Positions 783 to 59,597 of a DNA stretch of 64,000 nt are shown one piece after another (within the stretch, counting starts at the first letter, position 1; each line of letters begins with the position of its first letter). The stretch is taken from NCBI GenBank assembly GCA_965649765.1, contig OZ287755.1, positions 7,192,001 to 7,256,000 of the forward strand. The letters run 5' to 3'. The stretch is from Bispira polyomma. Its lineage: Eukaryota. Below the pieces are notes generated by a model that saw nothing but the letters and a program-made list of their open reading frames with translations, was not told where the DNA came from and searched no databases. Made by a program: the position numbers and the translations under genes.

Positions 783-1305
783 ATGTACAAAGAAAACTCC
801 CATACAGAGCACGGCAAAGAAATCAACAAAGAAACCGTTAACTTCAAGGAAAACAAAGACATGTCAGGTATCCGATTCTTTAGTTCTAAACCTTAGCAGC
901 CAGTCATCTGCGGTAGCGGGCCCCTCTAGAAACAACAGTCCTATTTTACAGTCACACAGTCGCCATGGCATGTGGTCAGGACAGCTTGGGCCCTCAGTAT
1001 GCATGAGGTAGAGGAGGGTCGGCTGTCCTGGCAGAATGACACTCAATGGACTGAGTGCATCTCAACTGGCTATGGCGAATGGCAGTAGTGCAGGTAACGT
1101 TAACAGTAATAGTGAATCCAAGATCATTTGTAAATTCTACAACAATGGGAAGTGTACTCACAAGACTGACCACAACAGCTATAAGCATATTTGCTGGCAT
1201 TGCAGCCGAACCTTAGGAAAGGACTCGTACCATCCCGAGTTCAAATGCTACAGGGCTAACAGTACGCAGCTGGACAGCCAAGCAAACCAGGGGAAACAAA
1301 GCTAG
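783..1305 (+). pseudogene. El1 gag remnant (internally deleted, frameshifted)
   Basis: TAWALSMHEVEEGRLSW aligns with El3 ASHAVVLCKMEEGKVTW. The C-terminal Cys/His knuckle is in ORF 1036-1305. Confidence 0.75.
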
Positions 1306-2282
1306 GTTCTGATTCAACAACCAAGAGGACGAACAATAAGAGTTAAAGATAAGAACAGTGTAGTGGTAAATTCGCAAAATGATAAGATTTCTAGTAATAA
1401 ACAGTTTCTTGATAGAGTAGGTAAAATTAATAAATTGAATATAGACAGTACTCATTCTTATAATGATATTAATGTTTGCAACAATGCATTGGTACATAAT
1501 ATTAATACAATGTGTTCAAATAATGTCACAGGTTTTGCACATAAGAGCATAATGACTGACCACGGCAGTATACCAGAGCACTGTGATATACTTGTGAACA
1601 AATATTTTCAGCATAATTCCAGCAATGCTGTCCAGTCCCAGAGTCATGATCAGGAATCAGTTATTAATGATAAGAAACCCCAAAGTTATGGTGATAATGG
1701 AAAAAACACTAGACAAAAATGATCCCAGTAGGAAACAGCTAGAAGTGACTTTTAATGTCACAAATTGGCAACAATATTGTATTGATTGGTCCATTTGGGT
1801 CCCCATAGTTTTTCTGGCTTGTGTTCAGAAACAGATTAAAGGTTTCTACTACATGTATCACCATTGCTGGGATAACAAAACGAAATATGTACCTGTAATT
1901 GATTTGCCTTAAGGGGAACTTAAAGTCATACACAGATATGTCACAGCTATATATATTAATCGAAACAAAAGAACTGGGTTTCTCATTAATAGAGAAAACC
2001 AGCTTAGTCCTGTAGAAATAAAACAAGCAAACAATGCTTTTTATCACTTTAACAAAGATATAGAATGTTACAAGAGATTTGGTTCTGACTATTCTGAGCA
2101 TATAATTAACATTATTGATAATGCATGTAATGTCAAGACAGAATGATTAGCAACGAGGTTGCAATCTGCAGTGCAGAAAAATACAAGTAAGTACTGCATG
2201 TGAAAAAAAGAACCAAAAGGTTTTTTATTGTGATAAAACTTACACTTGTCCAATCCGTTACTTCTTCTCCCAAACTGACGGT

Positions 2283-28500: not shown

Positions 28501-29614
28501 TGCTGTTTTTTGTCAAATGAATGTGATATTGGGTTTTGTTATTTACATTTAAGTCCCTCCCCCAATGGACCTTGCTCCAGGAAGAAGGTGACGGGGGAGG
28601 GGTAACTATGACATTGACACAGGTTGATCAGACAATCCCTGTACTCTTTAGTATCCAAGGTCGAGCTGCCAATTAAAAAAAATCTGACATTTTTCTTTTG
28701 AATCCTATAGTTTTGGGGGGCCATAAAAGCAAGGAATATCAAACATTAATATTCGTTTGGCACTTTCGTTTAACACAGTATCTAAATAATCGTTAATTCT
28801 TAGTATAAATCATCAAATAGGGTTTTTCTGAATGACTTCCTATGCTAGTTTCTTCAGTTATATTTTAAACTAGTATTACCCCGTTTCATGCAGTGTAAGG
28901 TATTTCATATCATATCATAACTTCACTAAAAGCATTCAGAGTTATACACGTAGTCTTTCAATTGAAGGTTATTCATTTTTGCTGTATAGAGAATTCATTT
29001 TCTCCTTGACATCTTTAATGCTAAAGAAGGAACCAGGTCTAGTTTTATTTCTCTTTTTCTAGATGACTTAAGGAATTACATGGGCTTTTAGACAGGTTTA
29101 CCCCAAGACGTTCATTGAATGGTAGAAACAATAAATACCTAGAATTTTTGATTGATTGCCAAATAAGGGATGGTGGCCCCGATTTTTTTCCTCGCCAAGA
29201 AATGGTACCTCTTGGGATTGCAAATAATTGAAGGGGAAATAGGCAGAAATAATAAAGTTTAGTGATTTACTGTTTTATTATATAATGTCAGTGTGTGAGG
29301 TGTGGTAAACAAATAAATAATGCCAAACAAGGAATGTTAGCACAGTGTTTTTTCCAGATTTTGGAGTAACCTTAACATTATAAATATTTAGGGCATAATT
29401 TGTTTCCAGGAATTTGTTTCATTTTTTGCCACTGTGCAACTTTGGTAGAGGTATATACTCTACTGATGAACAGATCTAGTGTCAAAACAATGTCCAAAGC
29501 ATCCACAGAGATATTGTATTTGTCAACATGGACAATATCAGTAGTAATAGTGTAGTAATGAATTTTATTATCCTCTTTTATCCAATATTCCACAGAACAA
29601 CAGCAAAGGTTGTA

Positions 29615-29842
29615 TTTAAATTTACTGTTGTCTTTTCAACAGCTTTGGTCATATCACGGCGGCCAGGTTTTAGTGGTGGGAGAAACCAGTTGCCGAAGCA
29701 CTGTAAACCACTGACCTACGACAAGTACCTGACAATCTTTCCCACATAAAGAAGGAATCTGTGGGATTCGATCACAAGATGTGAGAAGCCAATGATTTTA
29801 AAGCGGACGCTTATATAACCACTAGGCCACAGCAGTCTCCAA
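29615..29842 (-). mobile_element. tRNA-derived SINE (family 2); truncated paralogue ~39290-39472, + copy 55835-56060
   Basis: Head tggcctagtggtta..gatcgaatccc. Body gaaagattgtcaggtacttgtcgtaggtcagtggttt..ggtttctcccaccactaaaac..gatatgaccaaagctgttgaaa resembles molluscan V/Meta-type SINEs (recalled, not searched). Confidence 0.8.
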
Positions 29843-32063
29843 TCAATGTCTTTAACGCACCCATCTATCTTTCGGTATAATCCTTACATAGAAATTATAT
29901 TATACAAAGTAGCAACTTAGTCACTTTATCTTTTTTTTGCACAAGTGGATAAATCTTTGCAGATAAACACAAGAATAGGCTTATATATAAGAGTTTATTA
30001 TTAAATGAATACACACTAAACTTTAGCCTTTACAAAATCAGCTTGAGTTTCTACAGTAAAAGCTAAACAACTAAAGTTCTGGTTCCCCTTAAGTGACAAC
30101 CATAAGTACGTCCCTAATTCGAGATTTAGCAATTCTTATGAAAAAAGCTTTATCAAATATAAAGTCTGGGTTTTTAACTAAAAAATTCAGGACAAGCTCC
30201 TTAAAGGATTATAACCCTGGGGAGTTTTAGCCCAATTTTTTTCCTTCAAACTCTTAGTTGACAAAAAAATTTAATAGCTTGGTAGCCAATCCTGGCTGCA
30301 GATCGACTATTTCATAACAAGATGCAAATGTGTAACTGTCTAGACTTGCTCTAATTTTTTACCGTAAAGTACATATTTACTGCCGAACTTGTGATTTCTA
30401 GTATATTTTTACTTTAAAAAAATCATGAAATATGTAAAATGCCATGTCACCATTATAATAATCGATACTATAGTCTACACTATTAATCAATCAATTAATT
30501 CATCTACAGCAAATAACAGTTATTGGATAAGCTATGTTACTTTAACATTGCTTTTAATGCACTTGTGTTATGTTGCAAAAGCCATGAGAAATAAATAAAG
30601 CAAAAAGTAACAACTTGTCCCCCAAGGTCCATCCCTCCACCAAAGGTCATGTAAGTGGGTCTGGTATTGTTTGGTGTCTGATCCTGGTGACAAAAACAAC
30701 TAACACACATGTGGTGCAGGTCATTAATGGAATTAAATGAAGCAATATCTTGTTGAATTTTTAGAGAACTGTGATTTCCTCCATTCCAGATATTACTCAT
30801 CGTGATTTGACACGAATGTCGTAAAACTGAAAATAAAATAAAGCCAACTTAAAGCTAACCAAAATATATAAGCCTCTCTGGTAAGTACTTCAAGTCACTG
30901 TTAGTAGTTGTTCACACACAGAGAGCTAGAGCTGACAATAGTTAATCTTTTCCTTACTATGATTATGGTTTTGTTTCTTTCAGTGGACAGTAGCCATTAG
31001 CACATAACACTAAGGAGTCTGTTGGAGATAATAAACCATTCATGTACTGGCCAAACACTGTATAAATATTGCTGGGCTTGAGTGGGAGGGGTTGGTTAAT
31101 CGTAGGGTCGCTTGTGGCCTTTGCTAGGTTATTTCGCCAATTAATGTGCTTTTACAAAGTATCCAAGGTCAAGCAGCCAATTAAAAAAAATTCTGCCCTT
31201 TTTACTTTGAATCCTATAGTTGCACATAGTCTTTGAGGGCGACAAAAGCAAGCAATGTTAAACATCAATATTTGTTTAGCACTTTCAGTATACACAGTAT
31301 ATACTTTCTGTTCAATACAAAGAATACTGTATCTAAATAATCGTTAATTTTTAGTATAAATTATCAAATAGGGTTTCTCTTAATGACTTTCTATGCTAGT
31401 TTCTATCAGTTATATAATAAACTAGTATTAACCTATTTCATGCAGTGTAAGATATTTGATATCATATTATAACTTTACTTAAAGCATCCAGAGTTATACA
31501 TGTAGTTTTTCAATGGAAGGTTATTCATTTTGCGGGGTAGCGCCGTAGGGGATAGCAAGTTCAGTGCTACTAGTATTTTCCTCCTTGGGTTCATGCCCTT
31601 TAAACCCTCTCCTAATTGGTTATTTGTGTACTAATTAACCTCTGTTTTCCCGCTTTTTAGCTAGAATCCTCACTTACACTTTTGAAGTCATGTAGGCAAC
31701 AACGCCATCTTTAATATTTTACATTATTTTACTTTTATGTGTTTTATTTTTACTTCACTGATTTTATTATCTGTGTGATGGAAACAAGAAATGCAACAAA
31801 TGATTCACTAAGTGGTGCTACACACTAAGGAGGAACTGATCTGCAGTGCTTGTGCTGGATTCCTGTGTTTTACTCTACTTTGAGTCTTGCGATTATATGC
31901 TCGTTTGAGCGGTGGTAAAGGAACGTGGTCAAATCAATTATATTGCATCAAATTCACGGCTATTTGCCTGATTACATATAATTCAATTCAGATTATCGCG
32001 TTACAGTTCCTTTAGTATAGTTGCAGGTATCAAAGCCACGAGTTCTTATATTATTCAGAGGCT

Positions 32064-33038
32064 ATGGCCCCAAGGAAACAATATTTCTGTCACAAGTGTG
32101 AAACTTATCATGTTAAGCCCATTGATGACAACTGTAAAATGCATACCGGTGTGGGAACCTCCCAGCAGAACTCTGTGACTGGCGATGGTGTAACTGCTGC
32201 CGACGTTAATCTACAAATTTTGACTGAACTCAAAGCATTAAGTGGGCGTATGACCCAAGTTGAGCAGCAAGTTTATCGCAGTTCACATGGAGCCCAGGCT
32301 TTGACGGCGTCGAGCCCGGGGAGTGCAGCCCAACCTAGACAGGCGGACCAAACCACTTCTGAGCTACTGGTCCCGACGCTACACACACTACGTACATCCG
32401 ACTCCCTACAGACTGCAGTGGATTCACGTCTTAAGGAATTGGTGGCCATTAACGAGTCAGGTACGTCAAAATCTCAAAGAGGGGGTCCCGACACTCTGTG
32501 GGTGAAGAATAAGGTGGCTTGGCCTCAGAACGTTATACTAGGGGGACAAAACAAAACACGAGTTACGTATGACGCGTTGTCAATGGCCCAGTGGGTCTCT
32601 GGTTTTGCCAGTATAGCTAGAGATGAAAGTAATTTAGACGTTAAAAACCAAATGTTGGAGTATCTCACTGACCTCATGGAGGACGCTCATGACTTTTCCT
32701 GGACTTCGGCTAAGGCTAGCCATGCCGTTGTACTCTGTAAAATGGAAGAGGGTAAGGTAACCTGGGGAGATGCCCACAAGTTGGACAGGATTAGACGGGC
32801 TCATGCCCAAAGGGTTGTCATCCAGACTGCAAGTAGTAATTATCAAACCAACACCAGGAAAAGTCATGAGAAGTCCATCCCATGTAGGTACTTCCAGAGG
32901 GGTACTTGCCCCCAAAAAGGGGATCACGAATTCAAAGGTGTGTCATATAGTCATGTGTGTAACCAATGCTTTCAAAATGGGAGGTCTTACCCCCACCCTG
33001 CAAAAGACTGTAAAAAATATCCGTTAAAAAACGAGTAA
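32064..33038 (+). CDS. El3 Gag-like ORF1 (324 aa)
   Basis: Intact ORF. N-terminal CHKCETYH..C; C-terminal CRYFQRGTC..H..HVCNQC..H..C. Confidence 0.9.
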   Translation: MAPRKQYFCHKCETYHVKPIDDNCKMHTGVGTSQQNSVTGDGVTAADVNLQILTELKALSGRMTQVEQQVYRSSHGAQALTASSPGSAAQPRQADQTTSELLVPTLHTLRTSDSLQTAVDSRLKELVAINESGTSKSQRGGPDTLWVKNKVAWPQNVILGGQNKTRVTYDALSMAQWVSGFASIARDESNLDVKNQMLEYLTDLMEDAHDFSWTSAKASHAVVLCKMEEGKVTWGDAHKLDRIRRAHAQRVVIQTASSNYQTNTRKSHEKSIPCRYFQRGTCPQKGDHEFKGVSYSHVCNQCFQNGRSYPHPAKDCKKYPLKNE

Positions 33039-35442
33039 GGCACTGCAGTGATGCAGTGCCACCCCATGTTTCTTCCACACAAGAGGTGGTCAGAAAAAAA
33101 CTTGCACAAAAAGTTGTAAATATTTCTAAAGGTTGTCCCACTAGAACTGTGTATAATAGTTTTAAATGTATTACTGGCAGTACACATTGGAGGGCAGATT
33201 GGGCCAAATTTGTAAATAGATCTTATGCTGATGTGGTTAAAAGAAAGGCTCCCTCCAGGTCTGCTGCCATAAAGTTTTCTGTACAAAGTGCGAATGTGAC
33301 TCAGAGGTGGCAAAGTCACCACGTTAAATGTTCACCATGTTTAAATAACAACCAAATTTCAGAGGTGTCCACAAAGCATGAACGGGGCCACAGAGTGAGT
33401 GTTAAAACTTTCACAAAAGGTGCTTCCCCTTTCACAAGTGTACAGAGGCATAATGTAATGTCAAAAATGGGTAAACCCCCTCCAACAAAAGGTGATCAAT
33501 TTGGCCAAAAGCTGGAAATCACAAAATTAGACATTCAGGGCAAATGGCCCATTTCCACTCACAATAGGTTTTCCCCGTTGAGTGACAATGACCATTATAT
33601 GCACACTAGTGACAACTCTGTCACACATTTACCAGATACTTGTAACCAAGGTCAAGGTTTTAAAATACTCTCTCGAGGTACTGGGGGAATAAAATCAGAC
33701 AAATATGACCTAGAGCTACAAACTAAATCGAAAAACAGGGAACTTATAAAACATGCTTCCAACCAGCCTCAGTTCCAGCAATGGGATACTCAAACTACAG
33801 ATAAGTATGGGTTTATTCCGCTAAATGACCTCCGAGTTCCCCAAATGGATAAACGAGTAAAGTCGGATAAGTCTCTGTTAGAATTACACACTCAGATTAA
33901 GAAGGACAACTACCCAAATTATATGGGGGCACAAGTTCAATTGAATACTGGGATAAACAACTCCCTTTTTTGATAAGATATGGGTTTCCCCTCGATTTTA
34001 ATCCTGACAGCAAGTTATCTCATACAGAACAGAATCATTCATCTGCAACACAATTTCCAGATGATGTGCATGCTTATTTAAAAGAAGAGACTGAGTTAGG
34101 CGCCATGTTGGGCCCTTTCCATAAGGCCCCCATAAAAAACCTCCATATTTCTCCCTTCATGACTAGGGAAAAACCAGGTGCCGCACACAGGCACAATCAT
34201 AGATTTAAGCTTTCCTCATGGCAACTCTGTGAATTCGGCTGTAGTCAAGGATAAGTATCTCGGTACTGCGTTTGCATTAACCCTTCCCACAATTGACACA
34301 ATTACAAACAAAATCTGTCGCATGGGACGTGGAACGCTCCTATATAAAATTGACGTAAGTCGGGCATTTCGTCACGTCAAAATGGATCCAGCTGATTACA
34401 ATCTATTAGGCTTAAAATTAGACAAATACTATGTCGACTCTTGCCTCCCATTTGGTTTTCGGCACGGGAGCGCAATTTTTCAGCGATTAAGTGACGCCGT
34501 CAGGTACATCATGAAACGTTACGGACATGACGTCACCAATTATATCGACGACGTAATCGGCTATGGTGACGTCATAGAAAGTAAACGTTCATTTGATATA
34601 TTGCTAAACTTACTCCAGGAACTAGGCTTTGCGATTAGTCACAAAAAACTTGTGCACCCCAGCACGTCAGTAACGTGTCTGGGGGTGTTAGTTAATACAA
34701 ATGACTTGACAATCTCATTGCCAGATGAAAAGCTACTAGAAATAAACACACTTGTGCAAGACTGGCAATTAAGAAACTGCTGCAGTAAGAGGGAGTTGCA
34801 GTCACTGCTAGGTAAATTGTTATATGTATCCAAATGTGTTCGAGTTTCACGTGCTTTCTTAAACCGAATGCTTGACGTCCTAAGATCTGTAGGCTCGGAT
34901 CAAAAAGTAAAACTCACACCTGAGTTTCATCAGGATGTAAATTGGTTTAAAAAATTTTTACCAACATTTAATGGAAAAGCCTTCTTTGAACACAAACCCA
35001 CTACCGATTGTATTCAGTTGGATGCGGGCCTCCAGGGGCTGGGAGGTCGTTGTAATGATGAAGTATACCAATTCCAAATTCCTCTAGGCTACCTAGATTT
35101 CACGATAGTTCATCTGGAAATGTTAAACATCCTAGTTGCCATTAGGCTATGGAAGTCAGCGTGGGCAGGTAAGAGGCTAATATTGCAATGCGACAATGCT
35201 GCCGTGGTCACTATCCTAAATTCAGGCAAAACTAAAGACCTCACTTTGGCAGCTATTGCCAGAAACATCTTCATGGCCGTAGCCTCCCATGACATCAGTC
35301 TCAAAACCATTCACATTTTAGGTAGACTTAATACAGTGGCAGATCACGGGCCAGTAATAATGACAAGTTACTACAACTGGTATCGAATCCCAAATGGGTA
35401 AAAGTAAAAGACACAATGTTAGAAATAGATTGGTCTATCTAA
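33026..35442 (+). pseudogene. El3 pol (linker + RT + RNase H), -1 frame; three frame-disrupting lesions (~33965, ~34190, ~35345)
   Basis: ORFs 33056-33973, 33970-34254 and 34178-35401 are consecutive parts of one RT/RH protein (YGFPLDF, LPFGFRHGS, YIDD, QLDA, HLEMLN, CDN). Confidence 0.9.
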
Positions 35443-35448
35443 TTGCAG

Positions 35449-36440
35449 ATGTACCTTCCAAGCTAAGAAAGATTGCTACACAAGCCTCATACAGAGCCCA
35501 TCAGGCCTTTAGACCAGCCACTGAAAGGGCCTATACAAATATGTTTAGGATATTCTTGGCCTATTGTAGTTTTGCTCAGGTCTGGCCTCAAAATATCTCC
35601 CCCCTTATTATATTGGCCTTCTTAGAAGTATTAGTGGTTAATCAGGTCTCTTCCCCCTCCATTGCAAACTACCTTTCGGCAGTTAAAGCTAAATTGGCCC
35701 TCTATGGCCTTGACGTCTCTGCATTTGCAGATCCTAGAATTAAGTATTACCAAAAAGCCCTTACACTCAATAGCCCCTTCAGGGCTAAAATTAACGCTAT
35801 TATTGACATTCCCCTCTTACTCCAAATTACTCAAATTTGTGACAGCATGTACATGGGGCAGATCTTCAAGGCTCTGTACCTCATTGCCTTCTTTTCTTTT
35901 CTTAGAATATCCAACTTACTTCCACATGTTGTCTCTCAATTCTCTCCACTTGTCCAATTGGCCCGGGGGGACGTACTTTTTGCCTCCCCTGGCCTCCACC
36001 TCATAATAAAGTGGTCTAAAACAATGCAGTCAAAGAATGTAGCAAAAGTTATTAAAATACCGAGCCTAAGTGGCTCTAGTCTCTGTCCGGTGGCTGCCAC
36101 AAGGGCCTTGCTGGCTATTACTCCTGGACACAAAAATTCTCCTCTCTTTCAGTTTAAAAAACACCATAAATGGTCTCCAATCATTGACACCCAAGCTAGG
36201 CAAAATCTCACCCAAATTTTGAGGCGTCTTGGCCTCCAGCAATCAAACATTTCTTTCCACACCTTCAGGCGTTCAGGTGCCACCTGGGCCTTCAACAATA
36301 ATGTCCCAATTCAAGATATCCAGAGCCATGGCACTTGGACGTCTGATTGTGTGTGGAAATATATTGTACAGGATCACAATGCATCTGACCAAGTCGCCCT
36401 CACCTTCAAGGCCCTCCTTGCCCCTTCTACTACTTCCTAG
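35449..36440 (+). CDS. El3 tyrosine recombinase, intact catalytic set (probably expressed as a spliced exon)
   Basis: FLR (Arg), IKWSKT (Lys), HTFRR (HxxR), HGTW, WKY (Tyr). Confidence 0.92.
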
Positions 36441-39400
36441 TTGGGCTTTGGGGCTTTATTTACATACATTATATACAAATAAAATATAATAATGCTTAAA
36501 TATAAATATTTTGGGGCCACCTTACCTTATACTAATTTAATCCTTTTACATCTTTACTAAATCTCTTTTGGCAACCTCAAATAAAATCTAAGGTTACCAT
36601 TTTTTCTTAAATTTAAACTCATTCTAAGGGTACCCTAACTTCAAGTTAGGGTACCCCTAAATTCAACCTTAAAAATTTCAATCTTTGGTAACCCTGACTT
36701 CCAAGTTGGGGCTACCCTTAACCTTAAACTCAATCTTAGGGAGCCCTAACTTTCAAGCTAGGGCTACCCCTTAAATTTTAAAAAATCCCTTTGGTCACTT
36801 TGGCCTGTTGTCCTCAGGCTAAGGTCACCTTAAACTCTTAACTTCTCCTAAACTCTTGGGGCTAAGGTGGCCCCTTACTACACAGTATGTAAATAATTAT
36901 TAGTGATAACATAGTAAAATTAAAGCTAATATCCCCAAAACCTACCTTTCTTGTTATTTTCCTGTGTTACACCACATATACAAGTTTACTTGGGTAGGGC
37001 ACTGTGCGGGGTAGCGCCGTAGGGGATAGCAAGTTCAGTGCTACTAGTATTTTCCTCCTTGGGTTCATGCCCTTTAAACCCTCTCCTAATTGGTTATTTG
37101 TGTACTAATTAACCTCTGTTTTCCCGCTTTTTAGCTAGAATCCTCACTTACACTTTTGAAGTCATGTAGACAACAACGCCATCTTTAATATTTTACATTA
37201 CCCACCCACTTGCCCCTCCTACTTCCTCGGTAGTTTTCAGCTATGCGTCCGTCCCTGGAGTGCTGCATGCAGTCCCTGGGGTTCCTGAAGTCTCACTTTA
37301 CACCTTGGCGCAGGGGGGTGGGGGCTCGGGGCTGTGGGCCCACGAGTTATGCATTACTGCTGGCCTTCACAGTTCCCCGCCCTTGGGGGCCTTCTGGGGC
37401 CTCAGGTGACTTATCTCCCATATTCTTCTGGGTAACACCAGGGCCCTTAGGGGCCAACACTTACTTGTAGGTAGCTGCTTGCTGCTGAGGTTGCGTCTCC
37501 TTTTGTTGTTATCAATTGTATGTTACTTTATTGTCTTCAGGGTGTTCCCTTTGTTGTATATCAAATTGATAATGTTGTCAAATGTCCTGCGTCAGGTAGC
37601 ACGATTTATACGTATATAGTATGTGAAGTCGCATCCTTTTTGTTCTTATAGTAGCATGTAAAGTATAACTAGTAATGTTGTTCCTCGTTACAACGAGGAC
37701 TGGATTTGTAAAATGTTTGTATTTCGCAACCTGGTGTGGTTGCTAGTATAACGTTACAATGCACTGCACATCATGTTGTGTGCAAGTGCATTTGGTAGCT
37801 TTGTGATCACATGTTGAACTGTAAGCATGTAGTTTCAGGCATACTGGATTGATGGATCTCTTGTGGCTCAGTCAGGAATGAACTCTATACAAGCAAGCAC
37901 TGCCCTCCTGGAAGACAAGAGCTACTCGATTTATATTTTGCTCATGTCTGTATGCATGTTCTCTGTAAGCCATGGTAATTGTATATGCTAGGGGTTTAAG
38001 GTCTAGTGAGTTTTTGCTACTCTCATGGACTTTATTAGTGAGCAGCACAGGTTTTAGTCTCTTAGCTAGTACCATGGTTTTTTTAACTTCGATTTTACCC
38101 TTTTTGGGGGCTTTATTTACATACATTATATACAAATAAAATATAATAATGCTTAAATATAAATATTTTGGGGCCACCTTACCTTATACTAATTTAATCC
38201 TTTTACATCTTTACTAAATCTCTTTTGGCAACCTCAAATAAAATCTAAGGTTACCATTTTTTCTTAAATTTAAACTCATTCTAAGGGTACCCTAACTTCA
38301 AGTTAGGGTACCCCTAAATTCAACCTTAAAAATTTCAATCTTTGGTAACCCTGACTTCCAAGTTGGGGCTACCCTTAACCTTAAACTCAATCTTAGGGAG
38401 CCCTAACTTTCAAGCTAGGGCTACCCCTTAAATTTTAAAAAATCTCTTTGGTCACTTTGGCCTGTTGTCCTCAGGCTAAGGTCACCTTAAACTCTTAACT
38501 TCTCCTAAACTCTTGGGGCTAAGGTGGCCCCTTACTACACAGTATGTAAATAATTATTAGTGATAACATAGTAAAATTAAAGCTAATATCCCCAAAACCT
38601 ACCTTTCTTGTTATTTTCCTGTGTTACACCACATATACAAGTTTACTTGGGTAGGGCACTGTGCTGCATAGAAAACTCATTTTCTACTTCACATCCTTAA
38701 TGCTAAAGAAGGACACATGTCTAGTTTTATTTCTCTTTTTCTAGATGAATTAAGGGATTACGTGGGCTTTTTGACAGTTTAACCCCAAGATGTTCATCAA
38801 ATGGTAGAAACAATAAATACCTCCAATTTTTGATTGATGGCCAAATAAGGGATGCTGGCCCAGATTGTTTTCGCTGTGAAGAAATGTGACCTCTTGGGAT
38901 TGTAAATGATTAAAAGGCAGAAATAAAAAAGTTTAGTGAGTTACTGTTTTATTATATAATGTCATTGTGTGTTGTGTGGTAAACAAATAAATAATGCCAA
39001 ACAAGGGATGTTGGCCCAAATTTGTTAACCAGATTTTGGAGTAACCTCAATATTATAAATATTTAGGGCATAATTTGTTTCCTGAAATTTGTTTTATTGG
39101 TTGTCGCTGTGTCACTTTGGTAGAGGTGTGTACTCTACTAATAAACACATCTAGTGTTAAAACAATGTCTAAAGTATCCGCATCTATATTGTATTTATCA
39201 ACATAAACAATAGTAGTAGTAATATCGTATATTTCAATCTCCTATTTTATCAACATTGCAAAGGTGGCCATCAAAGACTATATTTGCATTTCTATGGGTT
39301 TTAAGCCAGTTTCAACAGCTATGCTCATACTATGACGGCCAGGTTTTAGTAGTTGGAGAAAAAAGTTACTGAAGCACTGTAAACCACTGACCTACGACAA

Positions 39401-41962
39401 GTACCTGACAATCTTTCTCACACAAAGAAGGAATCTGTGGGATTTGATCACAAGATGTGAGAGACCGGTGACAAATTCAGTTGACAAAAAAAAGTAATAG
39501 CTTCGTAGCCAATCTTGGCTGCATATCCACCATTTTATTTACTAGATGCAAATGTAACTGTCTAGACTTGCACTAATATATTACCGTTAAGTATATATTT
39601 ACTGTCCTGCTTGTGATTTCTGGTATATTTTTACTTTAAAAAATCATGAAATATATAAACTGCCATGTCACCATTTTAATAATTGACGCTACAATATGCA
39701 CTATTCATCAATCAATTAATTCATCTGGAATTCCTTTCAACACACTTGTGTTATGCCGCCACATAAAAGACATGAGAAATAAATAAAACAAAACCAACAA
39801 GTTGGCTCCCATGCTCCATCCATCCACCAAAGGTCTTGTAAGTGGGTCAGGTATTTTTGGGTGTGCAATCTTCGTGACAAACACACATGTGGTGTAGGTA
39901 ATCGCTAGAAATAAATGAAGCGCAATCACTTTTTGAATTTTTACACCAGTGACACTATGAGTCTATATATAATATCTTTTATATTATATATACTACTATA
40001 TGACACAAACGCGTTAAAAGAGTTGTGAAACTGAAAATAACTTAAAGCCTACTAAAACCTTAACAAAATATATATAACTACTATGGTTATGGCTACGGTT
40101 GGTAAAATGTGGCTTTAACATAAATGATTTCCTCCGCCACGGAACGACTCATCGTAATGATGACACAAACATGTTAAAAAGAGAGGTGATACCCAAACTG
40201 AACTAAAACAAACTAGCAACTAGTTATTAGTAGTTGTTTACACACACAAGGGGGTATTATTATTTGGTCTTTTCCAAAATGTGATTATGGTTTTGTTTCT
40301 TTCAGCGGGCCGTGGCCATTAGTATATGACACTAAGGAGTGTCTGTTGGGGGTAATGGACCTTTTATGCACTGCCCAAATACACTATAAATATTGCGAGG
40401 TCATGAGTGGGAGGGGTTTGTTAATCGTAGGGTGATGTCATCGGGCTAAACAAGTGGATGTCGGATTGGGTTTCAGGAATAGGTTCATTACTGTTTTTTG
40501 TGTAAGCACAAGGGAAAAACATGACATGTGACTACTGTTGATAAATGTTAGTAAATGCTTTCTACTGTATAATAAGATATCACAACAGTGTTTTTGATTT
40601 GATTAGCTTTGGTTTGGAAATAAAGAGTGCTGCTTACATAACTATAAAATAAATCATTTTATTGCATGCCCCCTCCTTTGGTTTATATAGTTGAAAAGGT
40701 ACAAAAGTGTACCTTGAGGCATATGCACTATAGGCATTCTCCGAGAATGAGTGAAGACAACAATGTAATATCCCTTTTAATTTATTGCCTTTGTTCTACA
40801 TGTTGATACATTCCCTTTCATGATTACAACAGAATAGTTTATTGCTTTCCCAAACATATATATCACATAGACCCAAATTCGACAAGCATTAACAACAATT
40901 TTAGGCACAATGTTTAAAGACAACACTGTAACTTTTAATTTCTTGCATTTCTTAAAATTTGATATATTCCTTTACATGGTTATAATAGAATAGTTTATTA
41001 TTATAACATTAAATATATTATACTATAAAGTCATGTTTAAAACTCAAATATCATATACAAGTACATATAGAGATGTTGCTTTATTTACAATAGTAATTGC
41101 AGTAGGATTGGCATCTCACCATTCATTTTGAAGAGCAACTCAAATATGTATTATTGATATATAGGCTCAGACACAAAGATATATGCTATCACATATTTTG
41201 TAACTCTAAGATGTTTAGATAAATACTTTCCCACCCATAAATACATCTTTCTCTCTAAATAGATATATATAATTCCCATTGTCTGCAAAGATCAAGGACT
41301 TTTTGTCTTTTATGATTGATTTGTCTCCCATTGCTTACTAGACTGGAATCATTCAATTAACTGCTGGGTTAGCCAGGTGAATATTAGTTCACTGGAATAA
41401 ATCACTGCAGATAATAAGAGTAGTTTATCAAGGGGCTTGAGAGATAAATACTGGTTATTTTTGTGTATGATTTCTTTAACTAATCGACATCACACAATAT
41501 AATCTGCAGTAACAAAAACAACTATTGAATTGTGTGTCATGGTTGTCATGTTATATCTGATCACGTAATAGTTACATGCTAGATCATTCAAGCACCCCAA
41601 CCCCCCCCCCCCTCCCCTCCCCCACTCCCCCCAAAAAAAAATATTCTAAAAGTAACAGAATGACCTTCCTATAATTTTATGAACATGTGGCAGCTTACAA
41701 CTGACTGTTAATGCACATCCTTTGGCAAAAAAATCATCCAAATATATGTCTACTCTCTATGAACAGTACATTTTATACCTCACCATACTATTTGATTAGC
41801 ACACACAATAATACAGACCTTAAAAACCTGCTGCAAAGTGGATGATGGATTTGTTCAAGACTGCTAAATCTCTCTAGCGCCAGGGCATGGTGTAGCAATA
41901 AATATGTTGTAAATAAAATTAGATAAAGGCAACAGATAGGTTGGTGCTACAGACTGTTAAAC

Positions 41963-46510: not shown

Positions 46511-48702
46511 TTAATTTTATTATATTATTACATGTACCCATACCTAGTACCTGCTGGTTGATCTGTCACCAGTATTACACAAAAAAGACCTACTTGCATG
46601 AACTTTTATTTAGGATGGAACATGAGAACATGGACATTTTGGGTTACATTTTGAAGTTGATTCATGTCAAATAGCAGATCAAGGCATTGTTTTCACTTTT
46701 TGGTACTGAGATGCCTGGATTAGGGTATACACTTTACATAACTATCCCCTGCTGTTGTACAAAAATTTAATAAAATATGTATAGCTGGGAATTGTTTCTT
46801 TCTCTGCCCTAATGCACGTTATGTTATCCAAGTTATACAATGCATAAAGACATTTTTTGAAGCGTCAACATTTTACCACATCTTATAAATAACTACTATG
46901 TTTTGTCTTTTTTGATATTTATTATATGTTAGGTCTGGTGCTAAAATTAGTGCAAGTTATTTATTTTGTCTATTATATTTTTTTGGTGTTTCATCTCCCA
47001 TTTGTTTCGTTATATCTATTTATCATGTCTTTTATTTATTCATTCCGTTTTTAGTATGTCCCGAAATTACACAAGTGTTTTGGCAGGGACGGTAATCTAT
47101 TTACTTAACTTAAGTTGTAAAAAAGAAGCTGGGCAATAAATATATACTTTATGGTAATATATCAGTGCAAGTTTAGACAGTTACATTTGCAGCTAGTACA
47201 TGAATTTGTGGATCTGCAGTCAAGATTGACTATAAAGCTAGTCAACTAACTTATGAGTTTAAAGGGAAAACTAACGGCTAAAAGTCCCAGGGTTCCAATT
47301 CATTTTTTTCAGTTGAAAGTCTAGAATTAATTTTTTGTAAGGAATGATCAATCTTAAATTAATCCAGGCTTAGGATGTCACTTAAGGGGAACTAGAACAT
47401 TAGTTGTTTAGCTGTGCTGTAGAAACTTAGTCGTTCTTAAATAATAAGTGTAAATGCTAAAGTTTTGCGTGTGTATGCATTTGATGATAAACTCGTTCAT
47501 TTATATACGCCTATATTGCGTTTCTCTGCACAGATGTATCCTCTTATGCAAAACCCAAAAATAAAAATAATAAAACAGGACTATATTGCTACCATGTATT
47601 ATAATTTTTTTATTTGAGCATAATATACTGAACTATAGTTACAGCCTTTGATGGCCAACTTTGATGATGTTCTGTGCTGGTTTTGGATAAAATGCGGAGA
47701 CTAAAATATCCATTACTATAATTGTCCATGTTGACAAAATATTTAAAATGAAAAAAAAAGAATATCTATGCTAAACTCGTGGATATACTTTGGACATTTT
47801 TTTTTAAACTAGAAGGCCTACCCACAGTTTAAGACTACATACCTCTTCCAACGTTGCAAAAAGTGAAACAAATTCCTGGAAATATACGCTGCCCTTCTAA
47901 TTTAGTAAGGTGATATGATATGATGATATGATAGATTTTTAAAATTGGATAGCAGGCATCTTCTAAAGTGCAACATCCTTGACAAAGTTGTCAAAACATA
48001 CTTCGTTTCCAATGCAAATAAGGTTGAGTTAAGAGGAAACAGAAAGTCTATTTCCTCTCTTAAGGTTATTAAAAGAAAGACAAGTAGCAAGGTAGGAGGG
48101 CTTTTGAGAGACAACAGCTTTGAATATGGTGACTTGGATTTTAAACAAAATTTGATAATGAATGGAAAGCCAATGCAATGCAATACAAGCCATGCAGGTA
48201 TGGAGGGACATGACTACTTATGTCCAGATAAAAAATGAAATGGATAGTTTTGAATAAACTGTAAATTATTAATGGGATGCTTTGTCACCCCAAATAGAAG
48301 GCAATTGCAGTAGTCAATGAAGCTACTTTCAGGGGAATTAGTCACATTAATAGCAGTATCAAGTGACAAGTGACTACTGATTCTCATCAAATGAGAAAAG
48401 GTAGTCAATAGTAACAGCAAAGTTCTTGACATTATTAGAAGGTTTTATATATTTGCCCAGTAGTGCAATGGGGAACTATGATATTAATGTCCAGGATCAG
48501 TACAGTGCCAAAAAAATATATCATTTCTGTCATTTTCTCTTCAATTTTTTTAAATCTCATGAGGTCCGAAATCTCTAAAAATAGATGGGCCAGCATTCCT
48601 TATTTGGCATTATTTATTTGTTTATCATACCATACCACACACAATGACATTATATAATAAAACAGTAACAGACTAAACTTTATTACTTCTGCCTATTCCC
48701 CT

Positions 48703-57920: not shown

Positions 57921-59597
57921 ATGGCACCTTCTATGTCAAAACTAGTTGCTTGTAATGATAAAATAACCAGAGATAAGCTATTGGTAGCTACACTATATAC
58001 TTTGTACTTAAAGAAGAAAAAATTCAACAAGAGAAAACATCGTTTTTGGGTGGATACTGTTTTGAAACTGAGAGAAACCTATGGTGCTTATCACCATTTA
58101 GTACAAGAACTCCACTTAAATGTAGAACATTTTAAGGCTTATTTTCGTATGTCTAAGTTACAATTTGAAAACCTGTTAATTGGACTTGAAGACGAACTGA
58201 GAAAAGAAAATTTAACAAGGAAATCTATATCACCTAGAGAGAGATTATGTCTGGCATTGAGGTATGTTTTTTGTGGTTACCTTAATAAATTATAAAGTAC
58301 TGAACAGTGTCTATCAAGAAAAATCTATAACAGTTGAATATATTTGCGACCTGAAAATACTTAAAAATATATATACTTAAAATGTACATCAGAAGTAAAT
58401 ATATATATTACTATTAATGTAAATGTGGTTGGTAAAATCCTATACTGATGCTATAACAATTATTTTAGAATGGAATTTACAGGTTGTTTTCTTCTGATAC
58501 TACTGATATCATTTGATTTTTAATTAATAAAATCTAAATACCATTTATATGATTTTCAAAGTTAGCATAGTCATAGCCCACTTTATACCGGCATTGTAAA
58601 CCACCGACCATCGACAAGTAACTTTCAACTTTTCCACTTAAGGCCTGGGTTGAGATTTAAACCTCAGAGGTGGGAGGTGGGTGTGTTACCGAGGTGATTT
58701 AGATATTCATAATTTCCCTTTTTTTATTACTTTTAGATTTTTGGCAACTGGAGAATCCTTTAGATCTCTGTCATTCAGCTTCCGAATTGGTATTGCAACT
58801 GTGGCGAGGATCATACCTGAAGTCTGTGATTTAATTTGGCATGTTTTTAAAGATCAGTATATTCCCATGCCTCAAACACAAGATCACTGGCGATTGTGAT
58901 GTTGTGATTAAGGCACCAGATAATACAGGATCGCAGCATTTCAATTATAAAGGGGCCTTCTCTGTGGTGCTACTGGCACTGGTTGATGCTCATTTGAAAT
59001 TCATATACATAGATACGGGTTCATATGGTCGAAACAGTGATGGGGGCATTTTTTCACACAGCAGCTTAGGAAAAGCATTGCATGGAAATAACTTGCACCT
59101 ACCACCTGACTGCCCAATGCCTGAGGCACCACAATTGGGACCAATGCCATATGTTATGGTAGCTGATGAAGCGTTTCCTCTTCATCATTTTTTTGAGGCC
59201 TTTCCCAGGAAAAAAATGTGGAGAAAAAGAACAACTGTTTAATTATCGTTTAAGTAGGACAAGGAGGATTGTGGAAAGCGCATTTGGAATCCTAGCGTCA
59301 AGGTGGAGAATTTATCACACCAAAATGGCTGTCAGTCCTGATACAGTAAACAAGATAGTTAAAAGTACTTGCCTGTTTCACAACATGATCCAGGCAACTA
59401 CAACTCCAGCAGAAATTACTACATTGTTAGAAAGTTCAGAAGGAGAAGCTGAAGGGTTGCAGGGGCTCATCAATATGGGTTACAGAGGTACACATGATGC
59501 TATTGACATTAGAAATAAATTTAAACAATACTTTGTTGATATTAACCCTCTTACATGGCAAAACGAACATGTTCGTCGTGGACTTTGTCAAGACTAA
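57921..59597 (+). pseudogene. Harbinger (HARBI1-like DDE_Tnp_4) transposase; exon 1 57921-58261, exon 2 58737-59597; defective
   Basis: FRMSK..F, ISPRERL.LALR|FLATGES (AG|gtatgt ... ttttag|A), NYKG.FS, GRNSDGG, VADEAFPL, FNYRLSRTRRIVESAFGIL..RWRI. A deletion at ~58897 removes the GAIDG catalytic motif, and there is a frameshift at ~59190. Confidence 0.9.

Follow-up and report, generated by a model that had tools for sequence, protein, structure and literature searches.

A probable −1 frameshift signal at the gag/pol junction of a Ngaro-like tyrosine-recombinase retrotransposon in Bispira polyomma

The El3 element and the end of its gag gene

The window considered here is a stretch of 64,000 nucleotides (nt) from Bispira polyomma (assembly GCA_965649765.1, contig OZ287755.1, positions 7,192,001 to 7,256,000 of the forward strand), and it houses a retrotransposon, El3, whose gag-like gene ends in a heptamer followed by a hairpin. 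These very probably constitute a programmed −1 ribosomal frameshift signal that gives rise to a Gag-Pol fusion, bringing with it reverse transcriptase (RT) and ribonuclease H (RNase H), in a Ngaro-like clade of elements. El3 runs in the order A1, gag, RT/RNase H, tyrosine recombinase (YR), B1, A2, around 900 unique nt and B2 (Table 1). The three genes lie in order on one strand and are enclosed by split direct repeats of the A1-ORFs-B1-A2-B2 type (ORF, open reading frame), with a TGC triplet in the left flank, at the seam between B1 and A2 and at the end of B2. El3 is Ngaro-like by this layout, the RT tree described below being made up of rows from the host genome only. A DIRS1-like identity was rejected, as the element lacks long inverted repeats (none of at least 40 nt between 30000 and 40000) and a methyltransferase match (none in Pfam at an E value of 0.1 in any of five long pol ORFs of sister copies). 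In two copies, L061 and L079, pol stops about 33 amino acids (aa) past the RVT_3 match. Domain searches of the element detected no protease or DDE integrase. The gag-like ORF, which matches no Pfam family, belongs to an open frame of 340 codons (32016-33038) with its first ATG at 32064.

The last codons of El3 gag are TTA AAA AAC GAG TAA (33024-33038), in which the heptamer A_AAA_AAC is embedded in the phase of gag. Downstream of the stop codon positions 33039-33047 pair perfectly with 33052-33060 to form a stem of nine base pairs (bp) that is capped by a GUGA loop, and the 111-nt junction region has a predicted folding energy of −29.3 kcal/mol (z −3.4). Starting at 33014 the −1 frame stays open, with a GTG at 33056 and a first ATG at 33458, until a stop closes it at 33973 after 315 codons, and the RVT_1 domain is located in an ORF (34163-35401) in another frame. 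The hallmarks of a frameshift signal, namely a phased X_XXY_YYZ heptamer, a nearby 3′ structure and conservation of silent sites, are all found at the junction, and a downstream ORF that is open in the −1 frame as far as the enzyme domains is found in the family, not in El3 itself. No meaningful match emerged from a comparison with Rfam.

An earlier note on this DNA had read a correctly phased A_AAA_AAC at 33026-33032, a 6-nt spacer and a perfect 9-bp stem, all of which the sequence bears out. The note had also described the −1 frame as open straight into the RT-containing ORF, which is wrong for El3. The GNRA loop to which it drew attention is present in El3 and is found in only six of 27 aligned junctions (see below), and it was therefore discarded as a component of the signal. 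A pseudoknot within El3 is likewise unsupported, because the loop is only 4 nt long and variable.

How often such an arrangement arises by chance was gauged in the window by counting heptamers that have a perfect stem of at least 8 bp beginning 5-9 nt downstream, with 40 shuffles for comparison. The forward strand contains four matches and the reverse strand one, against 0.28 per shuffled forward strand. Two of the four forward matches are gag ends, that of El3 (33026) and that of a second element, El2 (19511). The remaining heptamer-plus-stem matches lie outside YR elements, at 16018 and 59946 on the forward strand and at 47932 in the reverse-strand count. Two of these three contain a common CAACCTTAAGTT palindrome and resemble a dispersed repeat.

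A search with the DNA of El3 returned 40 places in the genome at 95-100% identity, the best 30 of which, El3 included, were taken for comparison. The heptamer and stop are kept in all 30 and the perfect stem in 27, whilst 20 of 29 close sisters have a −1 frame that extends unbroken from the heptamer past the YIDD motif of RT, and in five of seven full-length ones it spans 825-826 codons. Measured against these sisters with open pol, El3 has frame breaks of its own near 33946, 34195 and 35337. El3 is therefore a defective member of a young family whose pol is one long −1 frame with its first Met at codon 145, and, its pol being broken, the El3 copy cannot make RT.

Several features of the El3 surroundings are also worth recording. 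The roughly 900 nt between A2 and B2 (37201-38103) are unique, partly G+C-rich and outside the usual description of an A2-B2 end. Short palindromes of the GGGTACCC and GGGCTACCC types occur in runs within both B repeats (36620-36780 and 38280-38440). The element as a whole is lodged in one of the copies of a local duplication, around 85-90% identical (28854-29795 versus 31406-31531 and 38662-39471), which thereby supplies a natural empty site.

Conservation of the junction and its replacement in other families

Homology to the Gag proteins of El3 and El2 yielded 151 and 150 matches, from which 78 loci were picked by hand. The exact heptamer, in phase, is present at the first stop reached in 64 of them. 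Sixty-one loci combine a stem core with an open gag end; they group into 11 subfamilies that are 50-77% identical at the nucleotide level, and all 11 have NNA AAA AAC, with the preceding residue being Leu, Ile, Ala, Thr, Val or Ser. Across the same subfamilies not one of the 48 other Gag columns with an invariant residue has an invariant codon, and overall Gag codon use stands at 107:70 for AAA:AAG and 30:55 for AAC:AAT.

The stem was followed in 27 hand-picked junctions, where 93.4% of its cells are paired and three of the nine pairs show two-sided changes. The covariation score is 0.198, compared with 0.062 for shuffled and at most 0.048 for slid alignments, a type of score that is inflated by relatedness. 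Between heptamer and stem there are 6 nt in El3 and 7 nt in El2, and the distance from the heptamer to a CACTGC core is 8 nt in all 27 junctions. Predicted folds have z values of −2.2 to −3.8 in ten of the 11 subfamilies. In one locus (L173, C3:101946640) gag runs into pol in an open frame of 1029 codons with the cassette still in place, probably as the outcome of an upstream indel.

Genome-wide counts were made on the host assembly (1.04 Gb, 75 contigs), with only some of the matches checked as gag ends. The exact cassette, AAAAAAC-N8-CACTGC-N6-GCAGTG, has 1188 matches and its reversed control none. The bare stem core has 1436 (control 103), so that most such stems follow this heptamer. Variants are few, with six for the silent Lys AAG change, 42 for a first base other than A and 47 (control 8) for a change that breaks the stem and is silent in pol, and those listed are scattered over many spacer and loop types, as would be expected of decay after insertion.

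More distant relatives were reached through the recombinase, with 20 of 70 PF00589 matches being taken and a gag match obtained for 17. A slippery-type heptamer is present near the gag end in 12 of these 17 distant YR loci, with several kinds of structure behind it. One locus (L214) has A_AAA_AAC with the same hairpin as El3. In two others (L203 and L215) two interleaved stems begin about 8 nt behind A_AAA_AAC and were predicted by eye to form an H-type pseudoknot, a layout shared by most of the 16 best related loci (L217-L232), with little variation by which the pairing could be tested. In a further family of seven loci (L204-L206 and L209-L212), two of which have a broken gag frame, G_GAA_AAC precedes the gag stop by 12 codons and is followed, after 7 nt, by a long and irregular stem (z −1.8 to −4.9). 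In one locus (L213) pol is apparently in the +1 frame and no slippery heptamer occurs at the gag stop, which may reflect decay or another mode of recoding.

An in-frame UAG-G is found in the remaining type of junction, seen in four of the 17 distant loci and in El1, a third YR element of the window, where the cassette is absent. In the El1 clade gag ends in TAG-G in 28 of 30 loci taken, and frame 0 is open for up to 905-912 codons through RT. The motif CAACWACCAG occurs 9 nt past the stop, with TAGG-N8-CAACWACCAG returning 275 genome matches against ten for the control, and no stable 3′ fold is predicted after the UAG-G. The El1 junction is likely to operate by stop-codon readthrough (El1-type loci: L131-L171, L199, L200, L202 and L207). 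A G_GGA_AAC in El1 was rejected as a shift site as it is out of phase and not conserved. Four further loci (L241, L243, L244 and L246) also have a gag that ends in TAG-G, followed by a different 3′ sequence. In an RT tree of 21 rows from the host genome the 14 frameshift-type sequences separate from the seven UAG-type sequences with a support of 100/100, and the tree, being unrooted, gives no direction of change between the two recoding types.

Gag homologues are also present in other assemblies, where 371 were found, at most around 58% identical. Among the best 120 of these, 78 have KN within their last five residues, against a background of 3.2%, and the residue before KN could be encoded by NNA in all 91 homologues scored. 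Fourteen of the scored homologues run on as [GS]TA, several of them then with MQC, which is what the hairpin encodes in the gag frame. Given these KN ends and hairpin-encoded tails, the cassette probably exists in at least one other organism. A search of metagenome and viral contigs for the DNA loci of these relatives found none, and no longer fused Gag protein appeared among 4329 candidates of 696-2000 aa, albeit in a weak search. The ESM Atlas offered only unnamed clusters, with recognition below threshold.

Entry to pol and the competing explanations

The beginning of pol was compared in 13 copies chosen for an open −1 frame. The first 250 or so codons form a variable linker with conserved peptide islands (an RxV[YF] patch, SYxDxVK, HNRF and DKY), which lie upstream of any shared Met. 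No Met is common to all branches in these copies, and in one of them the first 330 codons lack Met altogether. Among the 11 subfamilies there is no conserved splice acceptor near the gag/pol junction, sites that resemble acceptors and are no more than 200 nt from the gag stop being confined to four subfamilies and to unrelated places. In the absence of a shared Met and a conserved acceptor, a shift at the heptamer would be the simplest entry to pol.

In such a scheme termination at 33036 would be the outcome for most ribosomes, yielding the 324-aa Gag. The hairpin would stall a minority of them while their Lys- and Asn-tRNAs occupy AAA AAC; slipping back by one base, the tRNAs would re-pair on AAA AAA, and translation would resume in the pol frame with the CGA codon at 33032. 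Copies whose pol is open would then give a Gag-Pol product of around 1,150 aa. The El3 product would end at 33973 (around 636 aa) without RT, and El3 would hence rely on RT from other copies.

The earlier note's proposal that Gag-Pol is made by −1 frameshifting gains support at the level of the family from the silent-site conservation of the heptamer, the fixed spacer, the covarying stem, the start-less 5′ region of pol and the apparent replacement of the stimulator in distant families. It does not apply to all YR retrotransposons in this genome, since the El1 clade has its UAG in frame.

Pol could instead be made separately, by reinitiation, from an internal or non-AUG start or from a spliced mRNA, leaving the hairpin to perform some other job such as RNA packaging or the control of termination. 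This is improbable, even though the elements do seem to splice, with phase-1 splice sites conserved as a donor within gag and as an acceptor ahead of YR, the GTG at 33056 falls within an invariant stem arm, and the RT of DIRS-1 is described as acting in trans in an extract of PMC7192593. The acceptor-like sites near the start of pol differ between their four subfamilies in phase as well as place, and Met positions are not conserved. The GTAAG that follows the El3 heptamer was rejected as a splice donor, as it is absent from the other subfamilies. Moreover, separate synthesis leaves unexplained why a phased heptamer should be conserved at its silent sites and at a fixed distance from a stem. 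Still less probable is slippage during transcription or reverse transcription on the run of six A residues, with an added A placing pol in frame in some of the RNAs. The run is there, and slippage of RT at a retroviral shift site has been published (PMC5737442); however, it is a short run, both the C, which never varies, and the distance of 6-7 nt to the stem agree with the geometry of the ribosome, and the related family with G_GAA_AAC has only four A residues.

It is equally hard to credit that protein constraint alone, exerted on the C-terminal KN of Gag and on an HC..AV motif of Pol, has combined with shared ancestry to preserve the junction. All copies are related, and in each core pair of the stem at least one position is indeed not silent for pol. 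Against this, the silent sites of both frames are fixed at the junction and saturated elsewhere in gag, as the 48 columns mentioned above attest, and both outer and inner pairs of the stem covary. Selection on the pol-frame peptide at this point would, in any case, itself need translation from upstream. The silent-site counts have largely refuted this explanation already.

A programmed −1 shift must also be set against a number of observations that weigh against it. Besides the broken pol of El3, 14 of the 78 loci lack an exact in-phase heptamer at the first stop (five have one-base variants with the stem, three have the cassette upstream of a broken gag frame and six have no stem match). Five of the nine stem pairs never vary and are thereby uninformative on pairing, and some subfamily stems are short (7-8 bp, around −12 kcal/mol, with z at 0.0 for L114). 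Amongst the distant families, G_GAA_AAC is one base off the XXX rule, and two loci (L197 and L198) have A_AAA_AAU with no predicted structure (z +2). The 1188 copies and 11 subfamilies are of common ancestry, such that the counts are not independent trials, and the Gag homologues share contigs and may stem mostly from one assembly. Finally, the finding of no stops in the first 300 codons of the −1 frame, compared with 6-20 and 30-45 in the other two frames of the 13 copies, is partly due to the selection of open copies.

Access to the recombinase seems to be a different matter. A −1 frameshift at the pol/YR junction is not supported, as the phase there varies among subfamilies (−1 or +1). An AG|GT donor is found at the same codon position of gag in all eight representatives in which the KSQRGG motif was found (11 tested), and with the candidate phase-1 acceptor it would fuse the N-terminal part of Gag to the recombinase. 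In three matching runs (contigs of unclear kind, with even cover) no joint at the predicted splice sites was seen among the matches listed, a result that is uninformative on expression. A broader scheme, towards which the balance tips slightly, is that Ngaro elements may produce three proteins from one RNA, with Gag made by termination, Gag-Pol by recoding and a Gag(N)-recombinase by splicing. The recoding module would have been swapped repeatedly within one genome, employing in some lineages a −1 shift stimulated by a short hairpin, by a pseudoknot or by a long stem and, in another, UAG readthrough driven by an undescribed 3′ CAAC(U/A)ACCAG.

Elsewhere in the window there are broken pieces of a DDE_Tnp_4 transposase (58835-59597), presumably of Harbinger type.

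Table 1. Positions within the window of the features of El3 and of the comparable junctions in El1 and El2
Feature	Position	Strand	Basis or remark
El3, whole Ngaro-like YR retrotransposon, 7.1 kb	31534-38664	+	repeat map and paralogous empty site 28960-29000
Split direct repeat A1	31534-31726	+	99% identical to A2
gag-like ORF, 324 aa, Cys/His-rich C-terminus ending KNE	32064-33038	+	371 homologues in other assemblies
Candidate phase-1 splice donor inside gag, for YR	32461-32466 (junction 32460/32461)	+	
Slippery heptamer A_AAA_AAC	33026-33032	+	in gag phase
6-nt spacer with gag stop TAA (33036-33038)	33033-33038	+	
Predicted frameshift stimulator, 9-bp stem-loop	33039-33060	+	fold and covariation
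pol 5′ part in −1 frame, closing early in El3	33026-33973	+	
Rest of El3 pol (RT, RNase H-like), pieces 33901-34254 and 34163-35401	33901-35401	+	RVT_1 E 2e-11, RVT_3 E 0.013
Tyrosine recombinase ORF	35364-36440	+	Phage_integrase E 3e-6
Candidate phase-1 splice acceptor just past pol stop, before YR	ends 35448 (35448/35449)	+	
Split direct repeat B1	36447-37007	+	2 mismatches to B2
Repeat A2, directly after B1	37008-37200	+	
Repeat B2	38104-38664	+	
El2 cassette: A_AAA_AAC, TGA stop, 7-nt spacer, 8-bp stem, UUAA loop	19511-19544	+	Gag ~45% identical
Junction of gag and pol in El1: TAG-G in frame, conserved CAACWACCA element, −1 cassette absent	1303-1325	+	

Relation to known recoding systems

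The mechanism of the shift is itself textbook, and what would be new is a defined gag/pol signal in a Ngaro-like clade. Expression of RT without a start codon has been surmised for YR retrotransposons, and in the literature searched it is not tied to a defined signal. A frameshift at this point would imply a fixed ratio of Gag to Gag-Pol, as in particle-forming elements, and in annotation gag and pol should be joined rather than pol being started at an internal codon. The cassette, at 35 nt and with around 1,200 natural copies and their variants, is open to a standard reporter test, and the El1 sister clade, having its UAG in frame, allows two modes of recoding to be compared naturally within a single host.

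The closest likeness is to the −1 signals of retroviral gag-pol and gag-pro junctions and of RNA viruses, which also consist of an X_XXY_YYZ heptamer, a short spacer and a 3′ stem-loop or pseudoknot, with the enzymes encoded in the −1 frame after a structural gene. In contrast to the retroviral cases, the host element here is a tyrosine-recombinase retrotransposon in which no protease or DDE integrase was detected. The gag stop lies inside the spacer, or directly after the heptamer in the El2 branch, and the predicted hairpin is short (8-9 bp), with a fixed core and a free loop. Junctions with stop-codon readthrough are also comparable, among them the gammaretroviral gag-pol junction with its UAG-G. 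A stop codon that is read through is also reported to separate gag from pol in Candida Tca2 (PMC2194720). The El1 clade resembles such junctions in that a conserved UAG-G is all that interrupts the frame shared by gag and pol, and differs in its CAACWACCAG 9 nt past the stop and in the lack of a predicted stable 3′ structure; El3 uses another mechanism.

A heptamer with a downstream structure is the standard −1 signal (PMC6771820), and PMC5009743, in an extract that mentions neither DIRS nor Ngaro, counts A_AAA_AAC among the heptamers on which mammalian ribosomes shift most. No gag/pol recoding signal is described in the portions available of PMC7192593, PMC5633606 and two preprints. Nor was a Ngaro gag/pol shift signal found in the literature searched, although Poulter and Butler 2015, Goodwin and Poulter 2004 and PMC1370496 may cover a gag/pol overlap or signal.

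Ngaro elements are described, in the parts available of PMC3783388, PMC9210276, PMC8547959 and PMC4157794, none of which reports a recoding signal between gag and pol, as having the order A1-gag-RT/RH-YR-B1-A2-B2 (RH, RNase H) with overlapping frames and no methyltransferase, and features were drawn similarly from PMC3266345 and PMC6681497. El3 shares this layout, the overlapping frames and the absence of a methyltransferase, and differs in carrying its 900 or so unique nt between A2 and B2. Programmed −1 frameshifts were thought probable in Ngaro by Poulter and Butler (2015), as quoted in the extract of PMC13003380, at the overlap of RT/RH and YR. In the elements described here that junction is without a fixed phase and looks spliced, and the proposed Ngaro frameshift would accordingly move from the RT/YR junction to the end of gag, where the predicted signal lies.

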